The notes below the pieces were generated by a model. The model was not told the DNA's origin. It searched no databases and saw nothing but the letters and a program-made list of their open reading frames with translations. A DNA stretch of 16,388 nt from contig JBBIMK010000035.1 of the NCBI GenBank assembly GCA_037444445.1, positions 1 to 16,388 of the forward strand, in the 5' to 3' direction. Both the position numbers and the translations under genes were made by a program. Of the stretch, positions 2,582 through 16,388 are shown piece after piece. How positions within the stretch are numbered: position 1 is the stretch's first letter; each line of letters starts with the position of its first letter. Origin of the DNA: a bacterium. Lineage in GTDB: Bacteria > UBP7 > UBA6624 > JBBIMK01.

Positions 2582-3424
2582 TTAACCAGGCGGATTTTCA
2601 ATGTTCTCCCTCCCGAGAGGAGGTGGTGGAACATTCCGGCGTTGGTGTTTCATTTCCTTTCGCTGTTTATTTCTTTTTTCCTCTGCTTTTTCTCTTTCCC
2701 TTCGCTCCGCAACGCTTTGCATGAACTCTTCAAATTCCTCCGGGTGGAGGGACAGGCGCAGAGAGGGGAGATGACTGCGTAACTGCTTCGCCTTTTCCTC
2801 CCATTTTTTACGCAGTTGGTTTTTATATTCTTCATATGCGCCCAACCGGATATATAACTCCTCTTCCCCTTCGTGTTTCAACTGTTCCCGAACCACTTCT
2901 GCCTCTTCTTTGTAGCACTGGCGGGCAACCCACTCTGTGCAACGGATACGCCACCACCAGAATTCCGTCAAGAACTTTCGGAGAACCTGGTGCAACAGGG
3001 GACTTCCTTCTCCATCCCAGATTCCCGGATGATAATGAATCAACACAGAATAAGTGCAGACGGTGGGCAAGAAGCGCCCCCAATGGATGTCGCCCAGGTA
3101 ATACTTGAACGGACCTTTCATCATCCGGAAGTTCATCCGACTAATGTGGGCTTCGTGGAGCCATTCGTTGATTTCTTCCCACTCTATGAACCGAAAATAG
3201 GGGCCTATACGATACATGCACTGCCAGTGCAGGAGGAACCAGTTGGGACCCTGGTCTACGATTCTGGCATCTTTCACCAGAGGATGATGCTTCGCCTGGT
3301 GGTTCAGGTCATTTACGGCGCGGACAATAAAAGGGAGGGAAATCTCCATAAGAAGCCCTTCCAGGGCGATGGATTTCGGTGCGCCATCCTGGTATCCGAT
3401 GGGTTCACTGGGCGGGTAAGTCAT
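2582..3424 (-). CDS. hypothetical protein; aromatic-rich N-terminal domain (possibly SRPBCC/START-like) plus a very Lys/Glu/Arg-rich C-terminal tail
   Basis: 280-aa ORF with an ATG start preceded by GAGGAGGG about 8 nt upstream. The first ~170 aa are W/H/F/Y-rich (…MMKGPFKYYLGDIHW…), reminiscent of polyketide-cyclase/SRPBCC folds. The last ~110 aa are charged and coiled-coil-like (…ERREREKAEEKRNKQRKEMKHQRRN). The competing plus-strand ORF 2873-3562 looks non-coding. Confidence 0.6.
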   Translation of the reverse strand: MTYPPSEPIGYQDGAPKSIALEGLLMEISLPFIVRAVNDLNHQAKHHPLVKDARIVDQGPNWFLLHWQCMYRIGPYFRFIEWEEINEWLHEAHISRMNFRMMKGPFKYYLGDIHWGRFLPTVCTYSVLIHYHPGIWDGEGSPLLHQVLRKFLTEFWWWRIRCTEWVARQCYKEEAEVVREQLKHEGEEELYIRLGAYEEYKNQLRKKWEEKAKQLRSHLPSLRLSLHPEEFEEFMQSVAERREREKAEEKRNKQRKEMKHQRRNVPPPPLGRENIENPPG

Positions 3425-3510: not shown

Positions 3511-3807
3511 TTATCCCTTCCTCTTCTTCCTCTCCACCAGGGTTCTCTCGGCATCCAGGTAATCCTGAAAGAGGGTTTCTAAATCATCCTCGCTATAAAT
3601 GACAGATTTTCGGCTCACCGTAATATCATCACCGGAGCGGGTAATCACAGCCAGGTCCGGTGGAAGTTTCTTCAGTTCTTCTTCCGCTACCTGCCGATAC
3701 AGTTCTTTATATTTGTGAACCACCTTGCCTTCCTGAATCGTAATCAAGCCAGCAAATTCAAAATCCCCTTCTACTCCATTCCGCCGGTATTCCAGAATAT
3801 ACAGCAC
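3511..3807 (-). CDS. hypothetical small protein (98 aa), no recognisable family
   Basis: GTG start (complement of 3805-3807) preceded by AAGGGGTGA at suitable spacing. The residue composition is balanced and protein-like. It lies in the same orientation between the peptidase gene and the 280-aa ORF. Confidence 0.5.
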   Translation of the reverse strand: MLYILEYRRNGVEGDFEFAGLITIQEGKVVHKYKELYRQVAEEELKKLPPDLAVITRSGDDITVSRKSVIYSEDDLETLFQDYLDAERTLVERKKRKG

Positions 3808-6506: not shown

Positions 6507-7589
6507 CTACTTTTTGCCACCTGGAGAAGAGCCCAGACGCCAGTGAAGGATGAGGATAGAAAGGTAGCCCAGACCGAGATAAATCGTATAGAAGATGGAG
6601 CGGTCCAGAAGAGTGGCAGCCGCCGAGATATTCTCTTTTACGCGCAGAGCGGAGAACATTCCGATGAGACTGGCTTCTGTGATCCCAAACCCGGCGGGAA
6701 CGAAGCCTAAAACTCTCGCCGCTAACTGCGCCACCGTTACCGCCACGAACACACTCAAGAAGGGCACCCTTTCCCCCAGGCCCCGGAACACCATATAGGT
6801 CCGAAAATAATCCACCATTCCGGCGAGAAGCGCCAGAGCAATGCAGGTCCATGCCGACCCGCGATTCTCCAGACTCTTTTTCACCGTAGCCAGAAAGGCT
6901 ATAGACCGCTCCTGAACATATCCCTGGAAGTCAGGATAGGAAGGGAATCGCCTGCGAATGTGCGAAAAGGGAAGAAAATACACAATCGTAAGAAACACCC
7001 TCGTTAGAAAGGCAGAAAGCATTCCTTTCAACAATATGATAGACACTACAGATGTCGTCAGAAGTATTAAAACCACGAATAGGCTCACAGCCACAGAAGG
7101 AGGAAATTCCACCTGAAAGAATACCAGCACCATCGCCAGTAGAGTGAAAATCAGGGTGGCGAACAGGGTATAAAATCGGTCCAGAAGAGTAATGCCGATA
7201 AAGGAAGTTTTCCCGTCTCCGTAGAGGGCATTCAGGTAATAGGCTTTGAAGGGCTCCCCACCTGCATGAAAGGCTGGTGTAGTAGAGTCTACAAAATTCC
7301 CTGCAAGGAAAATGAGATAGGCATCCAAAAGATGGACTTTCGCCGCGCCTCTTGCCGCCCGCATGAGTTTTATCCCATTCAGCAACCCGCTCAAAACTCC
7401 CAATAAAACCACCAGTAATGCTTCGGGCACCCTCAATTCTGAAAATGTCCTGAAAATAGACGGCAATCCGATTCTATGGAGAATCAGCAGCAGCAAACTG
7501 CCCAGGAGAACTGGAAAGAGATAAAGGAAACCTTTCACTGCCCTTGTGTATCTATTTTTTATCACATTTTTCAGATTTTGTCCACTCAA
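6507..7589 (-). CDS. polytopic membrane protein, flippase-like / lysylphosphatidylglycerol-synthase TM-region (UPF0104) family
   Basis: 360-aa ORF with about 8 hydrophobic segments. The short basic N-terminus followed by LLGSLLLLIL, and a conserved-looking GGEPFKAYYL loop, fit the LPG_synthase_TM family. The annotated start is TTG with no clear SD, so the start is uncertain. Confidence 0.6.
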   Translation of the reverse strand: MSGQNLKNVIKNRYTRAVKGFLYLFPVLLGSLLLLILHRIGLPSIFRTFSELRVPEALLVVLLGVLSGLLNGIKLMRAARGAAKVHLLDAYLIFLAGNFVDSTTPAFHAGGEPFKAYYLNALYGDGKTSFIGITLLDRFYTLFATLIFTLLAMVLVFFQVEFPPSVAVSLFVVLILLTTSVVSIILLKGMLSAFLTRVFLTIVYFLPFSHIRRRFPSYPDFQGYVQERSIAFLATVKKSLENRGSAWTCIALALLAGMVDYFRTYMVFRGLGERVPFLSVFVAVTVAQLAARVLGFVPAGFGITEASLIGMFSALRVKENISAAATLLDRSIFYTIYLGLGYLSILILHWRLGSSPGGKK

Positions 7590-7684
7590 TTTTGGCGGAG
7601 GAACTTTCTCCGGTGCATCTTACTGCGATGGCGAAAAACTGACAAATGTCATTGTTTTGGGGGAAGAGAGGTGTTAGGGTATCA

Positions 7685-7704
7685 TTGAATGAACATTCAT
7701 TCAA
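7685..7704. promoter_or_regulatory. perfect 9-2-9 palindrome TTGAATGAA-CA-TTCATTCAA, candidate TetR operator
   Basis: Read directly from the sequence. The arms are exact reverse complements. The palindrome straddles the ATG (7689) of the TetR gene at the head of the cassette, in the divergent 99-bp intergenic region. Confidence 0.45.
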
Positions 7705-8348
7705 CTGTGAAAAAATTTTCAGAAAACAGGGGAAAAGCCCGAAATGACCGCAGAGAGGAAATCCTTCGCTCCGCCGCCAGTGCCTTCCAGAAAAAGGGCT
7801 TCCTCGGCACCACCATGCAGGACATCTCCCGTCAATTGAAAATGACCCAGGGAAACCTCTACCACTACTTCAAAAATAAACAGGACATCCTCTTCCAGTG
7901 CCACGACTACTCCTTGAACCTCGTTTTACAGGAACTGGAAAGAATTCAAAATTCCCCCCTTTCGCCAGAGGAAAAACTCCGTGCTCTCATCCTGTTCCAT
8001 GTGGGAGTGATGGTGGACGAACTTCAAGCCAGCGCTATGGTTCTGGAGCTTCATGCCCTTTCCCCTGCCCGCTTGAAGAAGATTGTTCAAAAGAGGGATG
8101 CGTATGAAAGAGGGGTGCGGGAAATTATATCGGAAGGGATGAACCTGGGGATATTTGAGGATTATGACCCGAAACTGGTGGGCTTTTTCCTCTTCGGCGC
8201 CATCAACTGGCTCGTCCGCTGGTTCAACCCCGTAGGGCAGCGCTCGGCGAAAGAAGTGGCAGAAGCCTTCTCTAACCTCTTCATAGACGGCTTGAGAAAA
8301 AGGGTTGAAAAATCAACCGGAACGGAAAAGGGTGAGAAACGGCAATGA
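7689..8348 (+). CDS. TetR/AcrR-family transcriptional regulator
   Basis: 219-aa ORF. The N-terminal HTH EEILRSAASAFQKKGFLGTTMQDISRQLKMTQGNLYHYFKNKQDIL is a canonical TetR_N signature. It lies 40 bp upstream of, and co-oriented with, the reductase genes. Confidence 0.88.
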   Translation: MNIHSTVKKFSENRGKARNDRREEILRSAASAFQKKGFLGTTMQDISRQLKMTQGNLYHYFKNKQDILFQCHDYSLNLVLQELERIQNSPLSPEEKLRALILFHVGVMVDELQASAMVLELHALSPARLKKIVQKRDAYERGVREIISEGMNLGIFEDYDPKLVGFFLFGAINWLVRWFNPVGQRSAKEVAEAFSNLFIDGLRKRVEKSTGTEKGEKRQ

Positions 8349-8388
8349 ATGTCGGACGGAAAAATAAAACCTCAGGGAGGGCAAGAGA

Positions 8389-9516
8389 ATGAAACCCTTC
8401 AGCGACTGGTATCATCACAGGCACGAATATGCGAAGGAGTGGAAAAAACGAACCGGTGGTAAAGTGTTCGGCTACTTCTGCACCTATGTGCCGGAGGAGA
8501 TTCTATATGCAGGGAACATCCTCCCGGTGCGAATCTTAGGCAGTCATGAGCCTCAGGATGTAACCGAGCCTCATATTTTTTCTATGTTCTGCCCTTTCTG
8601 TCGGGATTGCCTGGCGCAGGGGCTGAAGGGGCGTTATGACTACCTGGACGGGATTGTGATTGCGCAATCCTGCCTTCATATCCGGCAGGCTTTCACTTCC
8701 TGGCAACTCCACATCCCCACACCCTTCTCGTACTACATCCCTTTCCCTGTGAATCTGCAAAGCCCAAGGGCATTGCCCTATTTGACTGAAGAGCTCCGGC
8801 AATTCAAGCTCTCCGTGGAAAACTGGCTGGGGAAGCCCATCGCGGATGAGGACCTGGATAGAGGGATTGAAGTGATGAACACCCACCGCAGATTGCTCAT
8901 GGAACTTTACTCTACCCGAAAATCAGAGAATCCTCCGATAACGGGTTTGGACGCCATGTATGCCGTAGTGTCCAGCCAGATAGCGGACAAGACGGAGCAT
9001 AATCAGGCGCTGACAGAAGTGCTGGATAACCTGCGCCGCTCTCCATCCCAGGGAAGCCATCGGGGCAAGGTGCGCCTAATGATTTTAGGAAGCGAGGATG
9101 ATGATACGGAATTTGTAAAGATGGTGGAGTCCGTCGGAGCCATCTTTGTGATAGATGAGCATTGCACGGGAACCCGGTATTTCTGGGAGGAAGTGAAGCC
9201 CGATGGGGATCGTCTGAAGGCGATTGCGGAGCGGTATATTCGGAGACCGCCCTGCCCGAGCAAGGACTGGCCCGAGCGGCGCCGGATTCCCCACATTCTT
9301 TCCCTGGCGAAAGAGTATCAGGTTCAGGGGGTCATCCTGATACAGCAGAAATTCTGCGACCCTCACGAGTTGGATATTCCCGCTATCCGGCAGGCTTTCA
9401 AGGAGGCGGGCATACCCACCCTCTTTTTAGAGTTTGATGTCACGGTTCCATACGGGCAGTTCCGCACCCGTGTGGAAGCCCTGCTGGAAACCATTCAACA
9501 GGAGGAATTATTCTGA
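8389..9516 (+). CDS. bzdN: Bzd/Bcr-type ATP-dependent aryl-CoA reductase core subunit (BzdN/BcrC/BadD-like; HgdB-type 2-hydroxyacyl-CoA-dehydratase fold)
   Basis: 375-aa ORF with an ATG start preceded by GGGAGGG. The motif [22 protein letters not shown] is typical of the BcrC/HgdB family. Conserved Cys at [19 protein letters not shown] and KFCDPH. Size and position (first of four) match bzdN/bcrC. Confidence 0.78.
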
Positions 9517-9517
9517 A

Positions 9518-10822
9518 ATGAAAAAGTATAAAACAGAGCCGTTGAAATGCTGGGGGAAGGCGAAGGAGCTTCGGATGGCGTATTATAAAAATTACGCTTC
9601 CGCGAAGGAGAAAGGCGGGCTACGATGGGCTGGCGGAGCCTGGTCGTTTGATGCCATCCCTCAAGGTCTGGGCGACGATGTCTATCCTCTCACCGGTGAG
9701 CCTTATGCCGCTTCCATCGCCTGGATGAAAGACTTTGCTCTCCAGTGCCAGGAAGCGGTGGAACGCGCAGGCTTCGCTCATGATTTGTGCTCTTATATGC
9801 GAAATTACTGGGGCTCCGTCCTCTTGAATCAATACGCCTTCGGCGGGCCTTTCCCCAGGCCGGATTTTATCTGGCAGAACCATATTTGCTGTAGCCATGC
9901 CAAATGGTATCAGGTGGTCAGGGAACTGGAGAAGCGCGACATCCCGATGTATTCCATAGATGTCAGCGTGGGTCCCTTCAAGGAATTGACCCCGAGCAGG
10001 GTGGATTATATTGTCGGGCAGATGCTGGATGGCATTGAGTTCCTGGAACGAGTAACCGGCAGGAGTTATGATGACGAAAAACTGATTCAAGCGGTCTACA
10101 ATCACTGTCGAACCTCCTCCGTTTGGGCGGAGATTTGTGCACTGAATAAAACAGTTCCAGCCCCCCTGGAGGAGAAAACGATGTATTCCCTGTATGTATT
10201 CGGCACTCTCCATAAGAGCAGTCAGTGGGTTGCGGATTTCTATGAAGAACTAAGGGATGAAGTGGCCGAGCGAGTTCAGAGAGGAATCGCCGCCATTGAG
10301 AACGAGAGGTGCCGGGTCATCACGGACACCCAGCCACCCTGGGGCTTTTTGAATGTCTTCCGCTACCTGGAAAAATACGGTTGCATTTCCGTGGGTTCTT
10401 TATATACCTTCGGCCTCATCGGCGCCTGGGAAATCAAGCCCGATGGCACCTGGGGCCCCAAAACCACACCCCAGCAGAAAGGCATCCTGTTGAAAGGGCG
10501 AGAAGAAGCCCTCCGATATCTAACAGAATGGGAACTTTCCAAGCCCGAGTGGCAACACTTCTATCATCCTCAATTGAAATCAGAAATGCTCCTTCGCATC
10601 GCGAAGGAGTGGAAACTGAATGGCGTGATATTGCACTACAATCGGGGATGCGAAGGGTTGAGCCTCGGGATTGCGGAGAACCGCCTCGCCATCATAAAAG
10701 CGGGTATCCCGGTGATGGTGTTTGAAGGGAATATGGGCGATGAACGGGAATTTGACGAGGCCAGAACCATTTCCCGTATTGATGCCTTCATGGAAAGTTT
10801 AGGGATGGTGAAAACCGGATGA
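9518..10822 (+). CDS. bzdO: Bzd/Bcr-type ATP-dependent aryl-CoA reductase core subunit (BzdO/BcrB/BadE-like; HgdA-type fold)
   Basis: The ORF track starts at 9434, inside the previous gene. ATG 9518, one nt after the bzdN-like stop (TGAAATG), gives a 434-aa protein. It begins [23 protein letters not shown], which I recognise as the BzdO/BcrB-type N-terminus. The C-terminal HYNRGCEG...[13 protein letters not shown] is typical of the family. Confidence 0.78.
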
Positions 10823-11589
10823 TTTACGCAGGATTGGATTGTGGAGCGAGGAATACGAGGGCTCTTCTGTGGGATGGGAAGGGCATTTTAGCACGAAGCA
10901 GTCATCTGACAGGCTTTGAGCCGAGAATCGTGGCGAAAGAGGTTCACATAGAGGCTCTACGGGCAGCGGGTGCGGAGTGGCAGGATGTGGCGCATATCAC
11001 CGCCACTGGCACCGGAAAAGGGTCCGTGGACTTCGCCCACAGCACCATCACGGAAGTCAGCGCCAATGCCAGAGCCATTTCCTTCCTCTTCCCACGGGTT
11101 CGCACATTGATTGATGTGGGAGCGGAGGAGGGCAGAGCCATCAAAATGGATGCGTCGGGGAAAGTGGTGGACTTCGCTATCAATGAAAAATGTGCCGCCG
11201 GGGCAGGAACTTTTATTGAGACGATGGCACGGGCCCTGGAGGTGTCGCTGGAAGAAATGGGGCCCCTGGCCCTCCGCTCCTCTCGCTCTGTGCCTATGAA
11301 CGCCCAGTGCGCTGTATTCGCTGAATCTGAGGTGGTCTCCCTCATCCACTCCAGAACCCCCAAGGAGGACATCGCCCGCGCTATTCATGACGCCATTGCA
11401 GAACGAATCTCCTCTCTGGTCCGAAGGGTGGGAATGGAACAGGATGTGGCTTTAATCGGAGGTATGGCGAAAAACATCGCATTCTACGAAGCCCTGAAGC
11501 GGAACCTGGGCGTGGAGATTATCCTGCCTTCTGATGTGGACTTCATCGGTGCGCTGGGTGCCGCTCTGACGGCTGAAGAAAGAAGGTGA
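10819..11589 (+). CDS. bzdP: BcrD/BzdP/BadG-type ATPase subunit (ASKHA fold, [4Fe-4S]-bridging, HgdC-activase-like)
   Basis: 256-aa ORF whose ATG overlaps the previous stop (ATGA). The cluster Cys motifs [13 protein letters not shown] and [12 protein letters not shown] and the adenosine motif LIGGMAKN are present. The phosphate-1/2 motifs are divergent ([22 protein letters not shown]). Confidence 0.78.
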
Positions 11590-11590
11590 G

Positions 11591-12472
11591 ATGCAGATGG
11601 AAAAATCGTCTAAAGAATACTGGCGCTGGCCAGAGACCCGCTGGACTTCTCCCGATATGGACTGGCATTCCGCAGGCGTTCTGACCGCAGGGGTAGATGT
11701 GGGCTCTGTATCCAGCCAGGCTGTCATCCTCGCAGATGGAAATCTATTCGCCTACAGCAACTGCCGAACGGGCTCCAGTAGCCCGGAGTCCGCTCAAAAG
11801 GCTCTTGCCTGGGCGATGGAAGGCACTGGAATAAAGATGGAAGACATTCGGTATATCGTGGGCACAGGCTATGGGCGGGTGAATATCCCCTTTGCGAACC
11901 GGGCGATAACGGAGATAGCCTGCCATGCCCGGGGCGGGAATTTTATCTACGGTCCCTCCGTTCGCACCATCCTGGATATGGGAGGACAGGATTGTAAAGC
12001 CATCCGGTGCGATGAGCGGGGAAAAGTCACGGAATTCCTGATGAATGACAAGTGCGCAGCGGGAACCGGACGCGGAATGGAAGTCTTCGCCGACTTGATG
12101 GCTGTCCCCATCGAAGAAATCGGGAATATGTCCCTGGATGTAGAGGAAGAGCCACCGCCAGTCTCCAGCACCTGTGTGGTGTTTGCCAAGTCGGAGGCGA
12201 TTGGGTTATTAAGAGGAGGCTGGCCCCTGAAGAAAGTCCTTGCTGGCTACCATTCTGCTATGGCGCATCGGGTGGTGGAACTCCTGGGCAGGCTGGGTGT
12301 GGAGAAGGAGTTCGCCATCACCGGCGGAATCGCAAAAAATGTAGGCATCGTGAAAAGAATTGAGCGAGAGCTGGGAATTACTGCCCTGAAACCCACCCTG
12401 GACCCCCAGATTGCCGGCGCTCTGGGGGCAGCGCTCTTCGCCAGAGCCCTTTACGAAAAGGAGAAGAAATGA
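11591..12472 (+). CDS. bzdQ: BcrA/BzdQ/BadF-type ATPase subunit (ASKHA fold, [4Fe-4S]-bridging)
   Basis: 293-aa ORF whose ATG lies 1 nt after the previous stop. It has the N-terminal extension KEYWRWPETRWTSPDMDW, then canonical GVDVGSVSSQAV, DMGGQDCKAI, NDKCAAGTGRGME, SSTCVVFAKSEA and ITGGIAKN. Two different small (~30 kDa) ATPases fit the Azoarcus/Bzd-type rather than the Thauera type, which has a ~48 kDa BcrA. Confidence 0.78.
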   Translation: MQMEKSSKEYWRWPETRWTSPDMDWHSAGVLTAGVDVGSVSSQAVILADGNLFAYSNCRTGSSSPESAQKALAWAMEGTGIKMEDIRYIVGTGYGRVNIPFANRAITEIACHARGGNFIYGPSVRTILDMGGQDCKAIRCDERGKVTEFLMNDKCAAGTGRGMEVFADLMAVPIEEIGNMSLDVEEEPPPVSSTCVVFAKSEAIGLLRGGWPLKKVLAGYHSAMAHRVVELLGRLGVEKEFAITGGIAKNVGIVKRIERELGITALKPTLDPQIAGALGAALFARALYEKEKK

Positions 12473-12756
12473 TTGCCCATTACGGGTATAAGGATGGCTC
12501 CGGTGAGTATTTCATCGGGATTGATACCGATAAATGCGACGGGTGCGGCAAGTGCGTCCCTGCCTGCCCCTACAATGTCCTGGAGATAGGGGAGGATGAA
12601 AATGACCCCTTCCGAGAACTACCTGTGGCAAAAGTCGTGGAAGCGGAGAGGAAGAAGATTAAGTACACCTGTGCTCCCTGTAAGCCCGTAGCCGGCAGGA
12701 AAGAGTTGCCCTGCATCCTCTCCTGCCCTGTGAATGCCATTTCTCACTCCTGGTAA
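12469..12756 (+). CDS. 2x[4Fe-4S] ferredoxin with a non-canonical second cluster motif (BzdM-position ferredoxin)
   Basis: 95-aa ORF whose ATG overlaps the bzdQ-like stop (ATGA). Cluster I is C23-x2-C26-x2-C29-x3-C33-P. Cluster II is C68-x2-C71-x10-C82-x3-C86-P. Its position directly after the ATPase genes mirrors bzdM in the Azoarcus bzd cluster. Confidence 0.8.
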   Translation: MIAHYGYKDGSGEYFIGIDTDKCDGCGKCVPACPYNVLEIGEDENDPFRELPVAKVVEAERKKIKYTCAPCKPVAGRKELPCILSCPVNAISHSW

Positions 12757-12833
12757 AATGCCCGCCCCCTGCCATTTCCATCGTGGCAAAGAGAGGAAGT
12801 GCCCCCGCCTTCTGACCCTGCTATACAAAAACG

Positions 12834-15365
12834 ATGAATAGAGTTTCACTCTATATGAATGGCAAGCAGGTTCAAGCATCGGCAGGAACTTCCCTCTTAG
12901 AGGTTGCGTGGCAGGCGAACATCTATATTCCCCAGTTGTGTGCTCATCCTGCCATACCCTTTTCCATCGGTAGCACGAAGGTTTCTCCTCCACCGACGGA
13001 ATCCATTTTTATCGGTGGACAACAGTTCTATCATGAAAGAGTTAGCAAGGAATATGAAGGATGCGGGCTGTGCCTGATTTCCATAGAAGGCAGGGAAGAG
13101 TTTTTCCACGCTTGCACCACCCCTTCTGCTGAGGGAATGAAGATATGGACGGATACCCCCGCACTCAGAAGGGAGAGGCAGAAAAGGCTTTCCTCCATTC
13201 TAACGAATCATCCTCATGCTTGCCTGACCTGTGCACAAAATCGCGGGTGTAGTCTCACTCAGTGCTCCAGCAATGTTCCCATCGGGGAGCGATGCTGTCC
13301 TGTGTTCCAGGAGTGTGAATTGCGAAAGGTGGCAGAATATGTGGGCATCCCTCCTGATGCCCCTCGCTACATCCCGAAGGGGCTTCCTGCCGCAGATGAT
13401 GACCCTCTGATTCTAATGGATTTTAACCTGTGTATCTCCTGCCTCCGGTGTGTAAGGATTTGTGTGGATGTTCGTGGAGTGGGCGCCCTCGGATACATCT
13501 TTCAGGATGGGAAAGTTCTGGTGGGAAGCCGGGCTCCCACACTTCGGGAATCGGCCTGCCGTTTCTGCCTGTCCTGCGTAGAAGTGTGCCCCACAGGCGC
13601 CCTGAGAGATAAAAAATCCTATTATACCAGAAAGGTTCCCTGCCAGTCTGCTTGCCCGGTGGGAATGGATGTGCCGAATTATATTCGGGCAATCGCTCTA
13701 CGGGATTATCCAACATCCATCCGATACATTTCCGGAAACATCCCCCTTACTTCCTGCTTGAGTAGAGTTTGCCACCATCCCTGTGAATCTGCATGCTTGC
13801 GGAATGAACTGGACGAGGCGGTTGCTATCTGTGGGCTGAAACGGTTCGCCTTAGACCAGACTGGATGGCTTTCCGATTTTACACCACCATCGGAGAACGG
13901 CAAGAAAATAGCCATCATAGGCTCCGGACCCGCCGGGCTTTCCGCTGGCTATTATTTAAGGAAAAAAGGCTATGATGTGACTGTGTTTGAGAAGGAACCC
14001 TCCGCTGGCGGGATGCTACGAATGGGCATTCCTCGCTTCCGCCTGCCAGAAGAGATTCTTCAAAAAGACCTCTCTGGTCTTCAAAATATGGGCATTAAAA
14101 TCCGTGCTGGCGTTGCCATAGACAATCCTGCCTCCCTTTTGGGCTTAAAGGAACAGGGCTACCAGGCCATCTTCATCGCCACCGGTGCGGGCTTAGCCAA
14201 AAAAATCCCCTTGCCCGGAGTTGAGAATGAGGAGGTCTTCTGGGGACTGGATTTCCTGAAAAATGTTGCCGCAGGCTTTTCCCCTGATTTCCGTGGGAAA
14301 AAAGTGGTGGTCATCGGCGGAGGAAATGTGGCGATGGATGTGGCCCTGACTGCAAGAAGATTCGGCGCCTCCTCCGTGAACATCGTTTGCCTGGAAAGAA
14401 GAGATGAAATGCCTGCCTTTGAAAAAGAGATAGAGAATGCCATAGAAGAAGGAATCGTTCTCCATCCTAACTGGGGCCCCAGACAAATTCTGTGTGCGAG
14501 TGGCAGGGTTTCTGGCGTGGAATTTATCCTTTGCACCAGGGTCTTTGATGAAGAAAAACGGTTCAACCCCTCTCTGGATGAATCCACCACGATGACTCTT
14601 CCTGCGGATGTGGTCATCCTCGCCATCGGGCAGGCGCAAGACCTCTCCCATTTCCCCAAACCAGTGCTGAATACGGTGGGGAAAGTGTCCGTAGACCCTG
14701 CATCTATGCAGACTCCCATCCCCGGTATCTTTGCAGGTGGGGAAGCGGTGAAAAGCCCTTCCTCCGTCGTGGAAGCCATTGCCGACGGGAAAAAAGCGGC
14801 GGAAGCCATTGACCTCTTCCTCGGTGGAGACGGTATCCTGCAGGACGGATTGGAGAGTGCAGGGGAATCCCGGTTCAATCGGGACTTCCAAAAAGTATTC
14901 AAAGGGTGGCTGGGAAAACAGGAAGGATTCGCTCAACGACAGCGAGAAAATATGCCCGTCCTCCCCCTGAATCGGCGCCAGGGATTTGATGAAATTGCTC
15001 TCGGCTTCACCGAAGAAATGGCACTCCGGGAGGCAACCCGATGCCTCCAATGCGACTTACGGGTTTCCATTCCACCCGTTCCATTACCCCCCCCGAAGTT
15101 CTTCCCTTTCAATGATGAATCAATCCGACTGGCGCCAGAGATGGAAGGCGTGATTCAACTCTTGAATGAGAAAATGGAGGTGGTGTTAATCAAAGGAACG
15201 CCCAATATAAACACTGCCCTGCGGGAACACTCCGGGAAAAAAGGTGTGAAATTCTTCCTGTTTGAATTACATCCGATGTTCACCCAGAGGGAGAGCGAAC
15301 TCTTACAGGAGCACTTGAAAAAATACGGAACCCTGCCCCAGGAAGACCTGGAAGACCTCTTCTGA
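12834..15365 (+). CDS. 843-aa multidomain Fe-S flavoprotein: NuoG/[FeFe]-hydrogenase-like N-terminus fused to a GltD/NfnB-like NAD(P)H:FAD oxidoreductase and a novel C-terminal module; putative ferredoxin-regenerating enzyme
   Basis: N-terminus: [2Fe-2S] motif C36...C77-x2-C80-x13-C94; His-ligated [4Fe-4S] motif H126-x3-C130-x2-C133-x5-C139; two ferredoxin motifs C200xxCxxCxxxC and C242xxCxxCxxxCP. GltD-type N-domain: C270...C274P ... C313HHPC317ESAC321. Flavoprotein body: FAD fold KKIAIIGSGPAGLSAGYYL...VFEK and NAD(P)H fold KKVVVIGGGNVAMDVA. C-terminus: EATRCLQCDL, a Pro-rich linker and a ~90-aa terminal module. Confidence 0.85.
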   Translation: MNRVSLYMNGKQVQASAGTSLLEVAWQANIYIPQLCAHPAIPFSIGSTKVSPPPTESIFIGGQQFYHERVSKEYEGCGLCLISIEGREEFFHACTTPSAEGMKIWTDTPALRRERQKRLSSILTNHPHACLTCAQNRGCSLTQCSSNVPIGERCCPVFQECELRKVAEYVGIPPDAPRYIPKGLPAADDDPLILMDFNLCISCLRCVRICVDVRGVGALGYIFQDGKVLVGSRAPTLRESACRFCLSCVEVCPTGALRDKKSYYTRKVPCQSACPVGMDVPNYIRAIALRDYPTSIRYISGNIPLTSCLSRVCHHPCESACLRNELDEAVAICGLKRFALDQTGWLSDFTPPSENGKKIAIIGSGPAGLSAGYYLRKKGYDVTVFEKEPSAGGMLRMGIPRFRLPEEILQKDLSGLQNMGIKIRAGVAIDNPASLLGLKEQGYQAIFIATGAGLAKKIPLPGVENEEVFWGLDFLKNVAAGFSPDFRGKKVVVIGGGNVAMDVALTARRFGASSVNIVCLERRDEMPAFEKEIENAIEEGIVLHPNWGPRQILCASGRVSGVEFILCTRVFDEEKRFNPSLDESTTMTLPADVVILAIGQAQDLSHFPKPVLNTVGKVSVDPASMQTPIPGIFAGGEAVKSPSSVVEAIADGKKAAEAIDLFLGGDGILQDGLESAGESRFNRDFQKVFKGWLGKQEGFAQRQRENMPVLPLNRRQGFDEIALGFTEEMALREATRCLQCDLRVSIPPVPLPPPKFFPFNDESIRLAPEMEGVIQLLNEKMEVVLIKGTPNINTALREHSGKKGVKFFLFELHPMFTQRESELLQEHLKKYGTLPQEDLEDLF

Positions 15366-15607
15366 CCGACAAATGTCTACCCACCTGCCATTCTGAGCGA
15401 AGGGAAGAGTCTCCTGTATTGAGGGTCCAACAATCCATCCTGCACGCTTGCCAGCACGCCGATGACAGCACCACCTCTCATTGGTAATTTTTAAGGCACT
15501 TGGCAAGCGACTTGCCTCCCATTATAATAACTAACGATGCACACCCGGGCTTCAAACTTCGTTTTTCACCATTTTCCCCCAGAGAAACGGAGCGATTCCG
15601 AGGTATA

Positions 15608-15641
15608 TGGCAATGGCACCCACCCCTGTCTGCCATTGGCA
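15608..15641. repeat. inverted repeat TGGCAATGGCA / TGCCATTGGCA (11-nt arms, one mismatch; 8-bp perfect core CAATGGCA/TGCCATTG) around a 12-nt spacer
   Basis: Read directly: 15611-15618 is the exact reverse complement of 15631-15638. It lies about 90-120 bp upstream of the integrase start in otherwise non-coding DNA. Confidence 0.5.
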
Positions 15642-15689
15642 CAGGCAGGCAAACCTTTGCTTCGCAAAAACTTCTTTTATGCTGGAGCC

Positions 15690-16388
15690 GTTTTTTGTTT
15701 TCCCTTTTCTCAAATTTTGTTATAAAATATGGTCGTAGCAGATCAAGATATGAAAGGTATAAGAATTGGAAAAAGCTCTGGAGGTAGGATAGTGGTTTCC
15801 TTTCCTTATAATCCCGATTATATTTCAAAGGTAAAAACCTTTAAGCGATACCGATGGCATCCAGAAGAGAGGTGCTGGAGTTTTCCATGCAACACAGATA
15901 CGCTGGAAAGGCTGTTTTCCATATTTGATGGAGAGATAATGGATGTGGACCCCGCTCTCCAGGGAGAGACAAAACAATTTGAAGACCTGCGAAAAGAACT
16001 GATGGCGAGGAGATATAGCGCCAAGACCATAAAATCCTATATACGCTGTAATCAGCTGTTCCTGAAGTTTGTAGAAAAGTCGCCTGCTGAAATTACCAAT
16101 GAGGATGTGCGGAATTTTCTTGTATATCTTGCGGAAGGAAGAAAAGCATCTACATCCAGTTTGAACATAGCGATTAATGCATTGAAGTTCTATTATGGCA
16201 ATATTCAGAAAAGGGAGTTTATATATGAGATTAGGAGACCGAAGAAGGATAAAAAATTACCGGTAGTGTTGAGTAGAGAAGAGGTTTCGAATATCTTTTC
16301 ATCGGTTGAAAATCTCAAGCACAAGACGCTCTTGATGCTTACTTACTCGGCAGGACTTCGGGTGAGCGAAGTAATAAAATTGAAACTC
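15690..16388. mobile_element. probable left edge of an integrated element (integrase-proximal end), extending beyond the window
   Basis: An integrase gene coincides with an abrupt compositional drop. By hand count GC is 21/60 (16141-16200) and 18/60 (16201-16260), against 33/60 (9181-9240) and 29/60 (15181-15240) in the cassette. No att repeat can be confirmed because the other end is outside the window. Confidence 0.4.
15729..16388 (+). CDS. tyrosine recombinase / phage-type integrase (XerC/XerD-like), 5' fragment truncated by the window end
   Basis: It is absent from the ORF track because it has no stop in the window. The frame is open from 15726 to 16388, with ATG at 15729 and an alternative ATG at 15750. 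My translation is …MKGIRIGKSSGGRIVVSFPYNPDYISKVKTFKRYRWHPEERCWSFP… RRYSAKTIKSYIRCNQLFLKF…NEDVRNFLVYLAEGRKASTSSLNIAINALKFYY…LPVVLSREEVSNIF…TLLMLTYSAGLRVSEVIKLKL. This shows a SAM-like N-terminal core-binding domain and the first catalytic Arg box (GLRxSE) of tyrosine recombinases. Confidence 0.8.
   Translation, partial: MVVADQDMKGIRIGKSSGGRIVVSFPYNPDYISKVKTFKRYRWHPEERCWSFPCNTDTLERLFSIFDGEIMDVDPALQGETKQFEDLRKELMARRYSAKTIKSYIRCNQLFLKFVEKSPAEITNEDVRNFLVYLAEGRKASTSSLNIAINALKFYYGNIQKREFIYEIRRPKKDKKLPVVLSREEVSNIFSSVENLKHKTLLMLTYSAGLRVSEVIKLKL

Follow-up and report, generated by a model that had tools for sequence, protein, structure and literature searches.

This study concerns an 843-amino-acid (aa) iron-sulfur (Fe-S) flavoprotein encoded at positions 12834..15365 of the forward strand in a 16,388-nucleotide stretch of bacterial DNA (contig JBBIMK010000035.1; the whole stretch is called the window here). 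Its open reading frame (ORF) and translation, its Pfam domains and its full-length homologs place it in the BzdV family, and it is a typical BzdV/ThnG-family member. We suggest that it is probably the electron-input component dedicated to the Bzd-type class I ATP-dependent aryl-CoA ring reductase cassette in which its gene lies. The question addressed is the source of low-potential electrons for class I ring reductases that have no 2-oxoacid:ferredoxin oxidoreductase at hand. A sequence-only reading of this DNA had reported no such oxidoreductase in the window, and annotation of the window ORFs agrees. It had also proposed a dedicated partner of the reductase and its ferredoxin, and this is borne out by a gene order (bzdN, bzdO, bzdP, bzdQ, ferredoxin, bzdV) that recurs in bacteria and archaea in both directions of search. 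The cassette in the window is as follows.

7689..8348 (+): regulator of the TetR family, first gene of the cassette (Pfam TetR_N, TetR_C_24)
8389..9516 (+): bzdN, catalytic subunit (TIGR03190, 477.9 bits against a cut-off of 453.8)
9518..10822 (+): bzdO, catalytic subunit (TIGR03191, 692 bits against a cut-off of 448.6, match from residue 32)
10819..11589 (+): second ATPase subunit of BcrAD/BadFG type, in the bzdP position (BcrAD_BadFG, E 5e-46; TIGR00241, 205 bits)
11591..12472 (+): bzdQ, ATPase/electron-activating subunit (TIGR03192, 421.8 bits against a cut-off of 380.2)
12469..12756 (+): 95-aa 2x[4Fe-4S] ferredoxin in the BzdM/ThnF position (Pfam Fer4 families)
12834..15365 (+): BzdV-family Fe-S flavoprotein, 843 aa

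The bzdN, bzdO and bzdQ products score above their NCBIfam equivalog cut-offs, and the ferredoxin gene lies immediately 5' of the BzdV gene. The ferredoxin, whose second cluster motif reads C68xxC71x10C82xxxC86P, has homologs of 53-91% identity at the equivalent position in related loci. A TetR gene is found at the equivalent place in the closest syntenic relative (locus L001). The ORF list opens bzdO with the TTG at 9434, which makes it overlap bzdN by 83 bases. An ATG at 9518, preceded by AGGAGG at a distance of 12 bases, agrees with the start of homologs and with TIGR03191; the true start is probably this ATG, giving a protein of 434 aa. For the BzdV gene, the ATG at 12834 agrees with the N-termini of homologs.

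A survey of co-occurrence had been suggested with the sequence-only reading, and linkage to bzd genes was found in both search directions. The scan that started from BzdV covered 185,579 species genomes and kept 80 loci, 17 of which match through the C-terminal DUF7508 tail described below, 15 with usable upstream DNA. Reductase and/or ferredoxin genes lie directly 5' of BzdV in 13 of these 15 loci. The exceptions are a Polaromonas locus (L017), where BzdV is followed by genes for a hydratase, Had (TIGR03201) and Oah (TIGR03200), and a Dehalococcoidia locus (L015) with no reductase genes within 8.8 kb upstream and about 2 kb downstream on its contig. The scan that started from BzdO in metagenome contigs gave 38 loci with at least 4.6 kb of downstream DNA. 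The complete order N-O-P-Q-ferredoxin-BzdV is present in 34 of them, and in two BzdV is displaced or split; the two from which BzdV is missing are also without P, Q and ferredoxin. The cassette is present in L001, which is bacterial, in a Heimdallarchaeote and in a Chloroflexi genome. The six-gene module is common to Asgard archaea, Bathyarchaeia, Chloroflexi, Desulfobacterota and Betaproteobacteria.

The same core without the tail is found in other settings. Seventeen tail-less relatives contain the N-terminal module and the flavoprotein and end at about residue 750; in the DNA available at these loci, bzd genes stand beside 0 of 17. Neighbours were annotated for eight of the 17. NuoF-like genes adjoin four (L026, L035, L037 and L054), as in the NfnABC/Stn arrangement, and a second NfnB-like gene is near two others (L020 and L034), the latter also with a formate-dehydrogenase-type gene. 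The sequence-only reading had held that a common, scattered architecture would count against a dedicated role. This applies to the core without the tail, which is common outside reductase contexts, but not to the tail-bearing form. On the locus counts in both search directions, the tail-bearing architecture is tied to the reductase, and the tail-less core is a general electron-input module. The tail-less relatives are 665-760 aa long, keep the BzdV domain order and occur in Lachnospiraceae, Prevotella, Chloroflexia and others. The NuoF-like genes beside several of them point to a permuted form of the NfnABC/Stn A subunit, not yet described, that is without the formate-dehydrogenase-like domain. 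Separately, BzdV stands directly after bzdP-/bzdQ-like genes in two Desulfobacterales loci (L011:8100-12481 and L012:636-4850), and in L011 the 8 kb upstream showed neither a ferredoxin gene nor bzdN/O-like genes; this arrangement may be a variant cassette.

The sequence-only reading had described the protein as an unusual mega-fusion that does not match bzdV, and neither description can be kept. The homolog search scored 8000 candidates, of which 7854 proteins were at E <=1e-10. Two closest relatives are 94% and 70% identical to the window protein. The next 120 best homologs, a lower bound on family size, are 824-865 aa long and 45-49% identical at 98-100% query coverage, and the full architecture, including the tail and its '..DDLF/EDLF' end, aligns without large gaps. 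Homologs come from Heimdall-, Hod-, Loki- and Odinarchaeota, Bathyarchaeia, Nezhaarchaeales, Chloroflexi and Deltaproteobacteria, and tail-bearing loci also from Betaproteobacteria and Desulfobacterota. Some are already annotated 'BzdV protein', such as P0004 (48% identity over 100% of the query), and a role of BzdV is in the literature. Because at least 120 full-length relatives are among the best matches and BzdV has already been named, the protein is not unusual. As for bzdV itself, the betaproteobacterial homologs in L017, L019 and L021 are 37-39% identical over residues 2-843 and share both the N-terminal module and the tail. The Polaromonas protein of L017 (39%, residues 4-843) lies in the published bzdV-W-X-Y order, and in a Rhodocyclaceae locus (L021) BzdV follows bzdQ and the ferredoxin. 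Thus, every feature of family membership that can be examined in sequence is present in the window: the bzd context, the ferredoxin neighbour and full-length homology.

The ORF and all the motifs listed in the sequence-only reading are present in the translation. The parts of the gene are as follows.

12834..13163 (+): N-terminal [2Fe-2S] domain of NuoG/HydA type (Fer2_4, E 1.9e-13; C36, C77, C80, C94)
13176..13328 (+): region of the His-ligated [4Fe-4S] motif (Pfam NADH-G_4Fe-4S_3, residues 115-143)
13395..13613 (+): 2x[4Fe-4S] ferredoxin-like domain (Fer4_Nqo3, Fer4_7 and Fer4; Fer4_Nqo3 and Fer4_7 at residues 191-257)
13629..13859 (+): Fe-S domain of GltD/NfnB/StnC type (Fer4_20, residues 266-342, E 4e-17)
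13905..14789 (+): binding domains for flavin adenine dinucleotide (FAD) and NAD(P)H (Pyr_redox_2, residues 358-652, E 6e-32)
13920-13937 (+): G363SGPAG368 motif, read from the sequence
14316-14333 (+): G495GGNVA500 motif, read from the sequence
14388-14396 (+): nucleotide-specificity site C519-L520-E521 (alignment to Pf NfnI-B, Csac NfnA and StnC)
15012..15068 (+): relocated 'EAxRC737LxC740' segment (aligned to 'EASRCLEC' of 9bov_A)
15069..15362 (+): DUF7508 module with a predicted GIY-YIG-like fold (Pfam PF24348; conserved acidic '...EDLF' end)

The Pfam families that had been anticipated, Fer2_4, Fer4, Fer4_20 and Pyr_redox_2, were found, and NADH-G_4Fe-4S_3 is just below its cut-off (23 bits against 27). 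The ligand residues checked are all invariant in an alignment of 119 full-length homologs, to which the statements on invariance below also refer. These include C36/C77/C80/C94 of the [2Fe-2S] domain, in which an insert of about 40 residues separates the first two Cys, and the Cys of the two ferredoxin-like motifs, C200xxC203xxC206xxxC210 and C242xxC245xxC248xxxC252P. The His-cluster motif had been read as H126xxxC130xxC133xxxxxC139, and these four ligand residues are invariant. In simpler relatives, with the text 'HPxDCTx-CPKYGKCELQ', the canonical ligands correspond to H126, C130, C155 and C161. A 25-residue insert in the window's clade, flanked by H126/C130 and C155/C161, adds C133, C139, C144 and C154, and all eight His/Cys of the region are invariant. 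Since the insert brings four more invariant Cys, it may form a seventh metal site (Cys4). The AlphaFold2 model of the whole protein has a mean predicted local distance difference test score (pLDDT) of 86.7 and a predicted template-modelling score (pTM) of 0.84. Its pLDDT is 58-69 in the His-cluster and insert region, as expected for a loop that depends on metal.

The Cys-rich N-domain of glutamate-synthase type named in the sequence-only reading is present (C270, C274, C313, C317, C321, C333 and K336), but part of it has moved. The Fer4_20 match begins at model position 28, and the first CxxC is missing there. It stands instead behind the flavoprotein part, as 'EATRCLQC' (C737/C740) in the window, and is kept in all relatives compared. 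The alignment thus indicates a circularly permuted domain, as in StnC/NfnA. No second flavin or nucleotide site is among the Pfam matches of the protein. In the NAD(P)-binding domain, C519 (14388-14390) and C567 (14532-14534) form a Cys pair without counterpart in StnC, NfnA or NfnB. C567 is kept in all 119 homologs and C519 in 115 of them; the two might form a disulfide or a metal site, or have no role.

The C-terminal module noted in the sequence-only reading proved to be a conserved Pfam domain of about 100 residues, DUF7508, whose window copy scores 15 bits, below the cut-off, against 32-37 bits (above it) in homologs. The terminal '..DDLF' or '..EDLF' is conserved in homologs and predicted to be disordered. 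Modelled alone (pLDDT 71.6), the tail has the order beta-beta-alpha-beta-alpha that it also shows in the full-length model. The nine top Foldseek matches of the tail are the GIY-YIG domain of UvrC (probability 0.99-1.0, template-modelling score (TM) about 0.5, E 2e-3), a weak but consistent match to the GIY-YIG core fold; the Pfam GIY-YIG family has no match in the tail. When the GIY-YIG catalytic positions were matched to UvrC by eye, the Glu (E822) alone was invariant. Where the two Tyr and the Arg would be expected, the window carries Ile, Leu and Asn, and the family is variable there. An active nuclease was set aside as a candidate, the catalytic Tyr, Arg and Asn not being conserved at these by-eye positions, and nuclease function appears unlikely. 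We infer that the tail is a borrowed fold that serves binding. A search of its profile against 1.84 billion cluster representatives matched 475. Of the matches listed, 150 of 150 end at the C-terminus, and among them DUF7508 is confined to the C-termini of BzdV-like proteins. In sequence, the tail cleanly marks reductase-linked BzdV off from look-alike Bfu/Nfn subunits.

We propose the following path, and infer its direction. NAD(P)H, predicted to be NADH in the window's clade, would donate a hydride to the FAD of the StnC-like flavin module. Single electrons would leave the FAD through the Lys-ligated proximal [4Fe-4S] cluster and then the distal [4Fe-4S] cluster. They would pass along a NuoG/HydA-like wire made of the two ferredoxin-type clusters, the His-ligated cluster, the possible extra Cys4 site and the [2Fe-2S] cluster, and from there to the 95-aa ferredoxin. 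The ferredoxin would reduce the BzdPQ ATPase module for ring reduction at BzdNO, and the irreversible, ATP-paid ring reduction would pull electrons over the uphill step between NAD(P)H and ferredoxin. The GIY-YIG-like DUF7508 and its acidic tail may help by holding the wire in a docked position on the ferredoxin or on the reductase.

The nucleotide preference is predicted from one site, located where the second strand of the NAD(P)-binding fold ends, which is Cys-Leu-Glu (CLE) in the window and Tyr-Arg-Arg (YRR) in NfnB, StnC and NfnA. L520 and E521 are invariant in the 119 homologs. The CLE type is found in the window, Asgard archaea, Bathyarchaeia, Desulfobacterota and others. The YRR type is found in Betaproteobacteria (L017, L019, L021), one Bacillota and one Dehalococcoidia, with L015 and L016 keeping YRR; among the tail-bearing loci compared, YRR members have Arg in place of Cys at residue 333. 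Since CLE replaces the YRR of NADPH-binding relatives, the Rossmann-fold rule for NADH versus NADPH specificity predicts a split family, with NADH use in the window's clade and NADPH use in the Azoarcus-like clade. The second Arg of YRR has been listed as an NADP(H) contact. In extracts of N47, tetrahydronaphthoyl-CoA reductase works best with NADH, the rate with NADPH being 69% of that rate, and Azoarcus BzdV has been named an NADPH enzyme. The predicted split fits both.

Several points weigh against a dedicated electron-input role as just drawn. BzdV activity has been labelled 'putative' since 2004, and the literature searched holds no purified or assayed member of the family. In the flavin-less mini forms described below, wire and tail work without a built-in flavin, and BzdV may be more than a soluble reductase. 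The betaproteobacterial members (L017, L019, L021) have Arg at the position of NfnB Arg333, and this part of the family may behave differently. The prediction of NADH from CLE draws on general Rossmann-fold knowledge and not on this family. Last, the energetics are demanding. The sequence-only reading had stated that NAD(P)H lies well above the potential of a reductase-type ferredoxin, and literature and standard values agree. NADH has a potential of -320 mV, and the Thauera reductase ferredoxin has potentials of -431 and -587 mV. The -587 mV value is given in a paper for this ferredoxin. A plain reductase running on NADH would keep about 1% of a Thauera-type ferredoxin reduced.

The last difficulty may be eased by the ATP-driven step, in which case bifurcation would not be needed; this is the answer that we prefer. 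By hand arithmetic on standard values, the transfer from NADH to benzoyl-CoA (about -620 mV) costs about +58 kJ per two electrons, and two ATP supply about -100 kJ. Therefore, the ATP-driven step could pull electrons through a ferredoxin pool that is about 1% reduced. This pull would work best with wire, ferredoxin and ATPase module kept in close association. Extracts of N47 show very low rates (0.7 nmol per min per mg), which are compatible with such a mechanism.

An explanation that overlaps with ours, and that we regard as unlikely to be the whole answer, is that wire and DUF7508 form an integral electron-entry subunit or adaptor joining the ferredoxin and BzdPQ, with the flavoprotein optional. 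It is favoured by mini forms of BzdV, 334-373 aa long, that have the [2Fe-2S] domain, the His-cluster with the Cys insert, the two ferredoxin-type clusters and the tail, and no flavoprotein. Ten of these were inspected (P0130, P0149, P0173, P0225, P0233, P0236, P0240, P0242, P0245 and P0263), all wire plus tail without the GltD module, and the gene context was looked up for two. In L167 the order is two BcrAD genes, a 91-aa ferredoxin, the mini form and then a small ORF; in L166, a short contig, a 95-aa ferredoxin gene lies immediately 5' of the mini form. Because the flavoprotein-less form fills the same gene slot, Fe-S wire and tail look like the reductase-specific core, and the long BzdV can be viewed as a mini form into which a StnC-like NAD(P)H/FAD module is inserted ahead of the tail. 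The C-terminal confinement of the rare DUF7508 (475 of 1.84 billion representatives) and its final residues, conserved and predicted to be disordered, point the same way. In addition, presence of the tail tracks the reductase context, and its absence tracks NuoF-like or other contexts. Against this, the older literature describes class I reductases, when purified, as enzymes of four subunits, and the match of the tail to GIY-YIG is weak (TM about 0.5, E 2e-3, pLDDT 72). Also, three genes separate bzdV from bzdM in the published Azoarcus order. A doubtful further version takes wire and tail, and not the NAD(P)H site, as the conserved core and makes them an unrecognised fifth reductase component that would dock ferredoxin and BzdPQ in a single complex for electron channelling; in the window's clade NADH, and not NADPH, would then drive reduction of a very low-potential ferredoxin. 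This could occur via tight kinetic coupling to ATP hydrolysis or a bifurcation-like split between the Fe-S branches.

The sequence-only reading had favoured a single-polypeptide ferredoxin reductase that bifurcates at its flavin or is energy-coupled in another way, in which the FAD would split the electron pair of NAD(P)H between a high-potential acceptor and the ferredoxin. The gap between NAD(P)H and ferredoxin is real on literature values, and the flavin module shares homology with NfnB, where the FAD is the bifurcating site. The fused NfnAB homolog AadN is genetically required for benzoate degradation in R. palustris. On paper, the protein also offers two Fe-S branches, one made of the GltD clusters and the other of the NuoG-like wire. 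In betaproteobacterial BzdV, Arg occupies the Pf Arg333 position, and a small conserved CxxC protein encoded 3' of the gene in many relatives could in principle be an acceptor. The diagnostic positions in the window nevertheless point elsewhere. The best Foldseek matches of the model are Csac NfnA (of NfnABC), Sporomusa StnC and Thermococcus (Tsib) NfnA, with E about 1e-45, followed by NfnB, dihydropyrimidine dehydrogenase and GltD. The invariant K336 aligns with K170 of Csac NfnA and with Glu126 of NfnB (Pf numbering). In solved structures this Lys of NfnA, and likewise K170 of StnC, ligates the FAD-proximal cluster, whereas NfnB has Glu. The GltD-type FAD in NfnABC/Stn has been described as the non-bifurcating end of a linear Fe-S chain, with bifurcation in the NuoF-like partner, and StnC is reported to have lost bifurcation. 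R403, also invariant, aligns with R201 of Pf NfnB. Arg333 of Pf NfnI-B has been proposed as the hallmark of a bifurcating NfnB; here the position is F529, and the 119 close homologs have H, F, N, Y, M or A there, in no case Arg. The protein is without a second flavin or nucleotide site, the window holds no NfnA-, NuoF- or NuoE-like gene, the small CxxC gene is absent from the window, and mini forms without flavin keep the gene context. Thus, with no marker of bifurcation found, the proposal is weakened, and we consider it improbable. Because of K336, F529 and the lack of a second site or partner gene, we group the window flavin with the non-bifurcating kind; it is most likely a plain converter of two-electron to one-electron transfer, which is the role it has in our electron-input explanation.

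A flow in reverse, with the protein as a ferredoxin:NAD+ oxidoreductase or redox valve draining excess reduced ferredoxin, is very improbable. Ferredoxin to NAD(P)+ is the exergonic direction, monofunctional NfnB-like Fnor enzymes run so in fermenters, and 2-oxoacid:ferredoxin oxidoreductase genes are near some related loci (L002, L167). However, a valve would not need the tight and specific linkage to an electron-consuming reductase and a private ferredoxin, and tetrahydronaphthoyl-CoA reduction in extracts of N47, which encodes a homologous cassette, is NADH-/NADPH-dependent. A generic subunit of Bfu type (NfnABC/Stn), glutamate-synthase-like or hydrogenase type, beside the reductase by chance, hardly deserves credence: its best solved matches are NfnA and StnC, tail-less relatives adjoin NuoF-like genes and the tail-bearing L015 is without reductase genes in its 8.8 kb upstream and about 2 kb downstream, but the synteny counts, with linkage seen from either search direction and in archaea as well as bacteria, come near to refuting it, and neither NuoF/NuoE-like, GltB or hydrogenase genes in the window nor the formate-dehydrogenase-like domain of NfnA/StnC were found.

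Among the ORFs of the window, NuoF/NuoE-like, NfnA-like, GltB-like and hydrogenase genes were searched for, and none was found. Around the cassette, no benzoyl-CoA pathway genes were found in the window. The opposite strand carries housekeeping genes, for a TsaB-like protein, TsaE, an AIR-synthase-related protein, a prolidase, a cyclophilin and an LPG-synthase-like membrane protein; TsaB, TsaE and ThiL on this strand point to a bacterial source. Between the AIR-synthase-related and prolidase genes are ORFs of 280 aa (2582-3424, -) and 98 aa (3511-3807, -), without a Pfam family at E <=0.001; L001 has ORFs of 279 and 98 aa at matching positions. A scan of 7400-16388 gave promoter and terminator counts not above those of shuffled sequence, and no inverted repeats were found around the cassette ends. 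Downstream, a tyrosine recombinase/integrase gene (15729-16388, +; Phage_int_SAM_4, E 1.5e-18) runs off the end of the window. Since L001 carries other genes at that place (a small ORF, a zinc alcohol dehydrogenase and an antitoxin-like gene), a replacement or insertion directly 3' of the window cassette seems to have occurred.

The small conserved gene mentioned above (70-120 aa) lies directly 3' of BzdV in many related loci, at L001:12623-12835, L002:11138-11407, L003:12527-12763, L013:7050-7295, L022:12447-12686 and others; in L021 it lies between ferredoxin and BzdV. Its product has the motif GWxKRF..EPRLsE..LGFEV..EP..CxxC..IYTR and no Pfam family. In the window it is absent from 15366-15728, and no match was better than E 0.2. 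In L002 (Heimdallarchaeota B3_Heim, NJBF01000051.1), ferredoxin-linked redox genes are unusually dense. The cassette is flanked there by genes for an aldehyde:ferredoxin oxidoreductase and the polyferredoxin that belongs to it, by a further HGD-D/BcrAD pair encoded on the opposite strand, by a 2-oxoacid:ferredoxin oxidoreductase of two genes and by an enoyl-CoA hydratase.

The locus does not add a new kind of protein, but the survey sharpens the question of electron supply by defining the module, the tail as a marker, the predicted NADH and NADPH subtypes and the mini forms. Measured against the literature searched, several points may be new, namely the use of the tail to mark reductase context, the GIY-YIG-like fold of the tail, the mini form, the Cys4 insert and the CLE/YRR split; these points concern the family as a whole and not the window locus. 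They provide handles for reconstitution and for the annotation of 'benzoyl-CoA reductase' clusters in uncultured anaerobes.

Comparison with named systems places the protein more exactly. The GltD small subunit was rejected as an identity, with no GltB-like ORF in the window and NCBIfam models of GltD type far below cut-off. A hydrogenase subunit was likewise rejected, with no hydrogenase partner genes in the window and NCBIfam scores far below cut-off. Ferredoxin:NADP+ oxidoreductases of Cac_0764 type are stand-alone, NfnB-like proteins that are also without Arg333 and an NfnA partner, and they have been shown to be non-bifurcating Fnor. They differ in their size (about 400-470 aa), in the absence of a NuoG-like wire and DUF7508, and in using NADP(H), with a flow thought to run from ferredoxin to NADP+. 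AadN of Rhodopseudomonas palustris is likewise a flavoprotein of GltD/NfnB type genetically tied to the electron supply of a class I benzoyl-CoA reductase. However, AadN is a fused NfnAB, which has a further FAD/NAD site as well as a [2Fe-2S] cluster of NfnA type, whereas BzdV has a NuoG-like wire and no second flavin site. With NfnB/NfnL of NfnAB (5JCA, 4YLF) the protein shares Fer4_20 and Pyr_redox_2, about 35% identity, a Foldseek root-mean-square deviation of 2.6-4 A and the Arg201 equivalent (R403). In place of an NfnA partner it has the 95-aa ferredoxin gene upstream, it has Lys for Glu and Phe for Arg333, and its first CxxC is relocated. With three defining features of a bifurcating NfnB lacking, the comparison indicates that it is not NfnB in that sense.

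The best matches in sequence and fold are StnC of StnABC (8OH5) and NfnA of NfnABC (9BOV, 9N5U), which are BfuA-type subunits. Shared features are the N-terminal [2Fe-2S] domain, the NuoG-like clusters, the GltD-like FAD module, 'RCLxC' and the Lys ligand. In StnC/NfnA the flavin module directly follows the [2Fe-2S] domain, while in the window it follows the ferredoxin-like domain. StnC/NfnA end in a formate-dehydrogenase-like domain, and this formate-dehydrogenase/NuoG-like domain of BfuA-type subunits has been described to mediate tetramer formation; the window protein is without it and has no match to the Molybdopterin family. In addition, the window has no NuoF/NuoE-like (BfuB/BfuC) partner genes, has CLE and not YRR, and has the DUF7508 tail and the 25-residue Cys4 insert that StnC/NfnA are without. 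By this comparison, the protein would work like the NADPH-input subunit of NfnABC/Stn, yet it stands outside that family.

The closest counterparts are the named members of the family. BzdV of Azoarcus has been described as a putative NADPH:ferredoxin oxidoreductase, korAB and bzdV have been described together as a ferredoxin-regenerating system, and BzdV has been reported beside reductase genes in Hermodarchaeota. With BzdV of Azoarcus/Aromatoleum, also annotated in Asgard archaea, Chloroflexi and Desulfatiglans, the window protein shares its position in the bzd cluster, length class, domain order and proposed role as a ferredoxin reductase; the comparison with Azoarcus-type BzdV rests on the Rhodocyclaceae and Polaromonas genome loci. 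Betaproteobacterial BzdV differs from the window clade in YRR against CLE, Arg against Phe/His at the NfnB Arg333 position, and Arg against Cys at residue 333. ThnG (N47_E41430) has been reported after the tetrahydronaphthoyl-CoA reductase genes and a ferredoxin in N47, NaphS2 and Desulfatiglans TRIP_1, and its TRIP_1 homolog is annotated 'BzdV protein'. Likened by its operon, ThnG shares the order of regulator, four Bzd-type reductase genes, ferredoxin and oxidoreductase. Its operon continues downstream with beta-oxidation-like thn genes, which the window is without, the tyrosine recombinase gene standing there instead. The ThnG pathway prefers NADH in extracts, in agreement with the preference that CLE predicts for the window protein.

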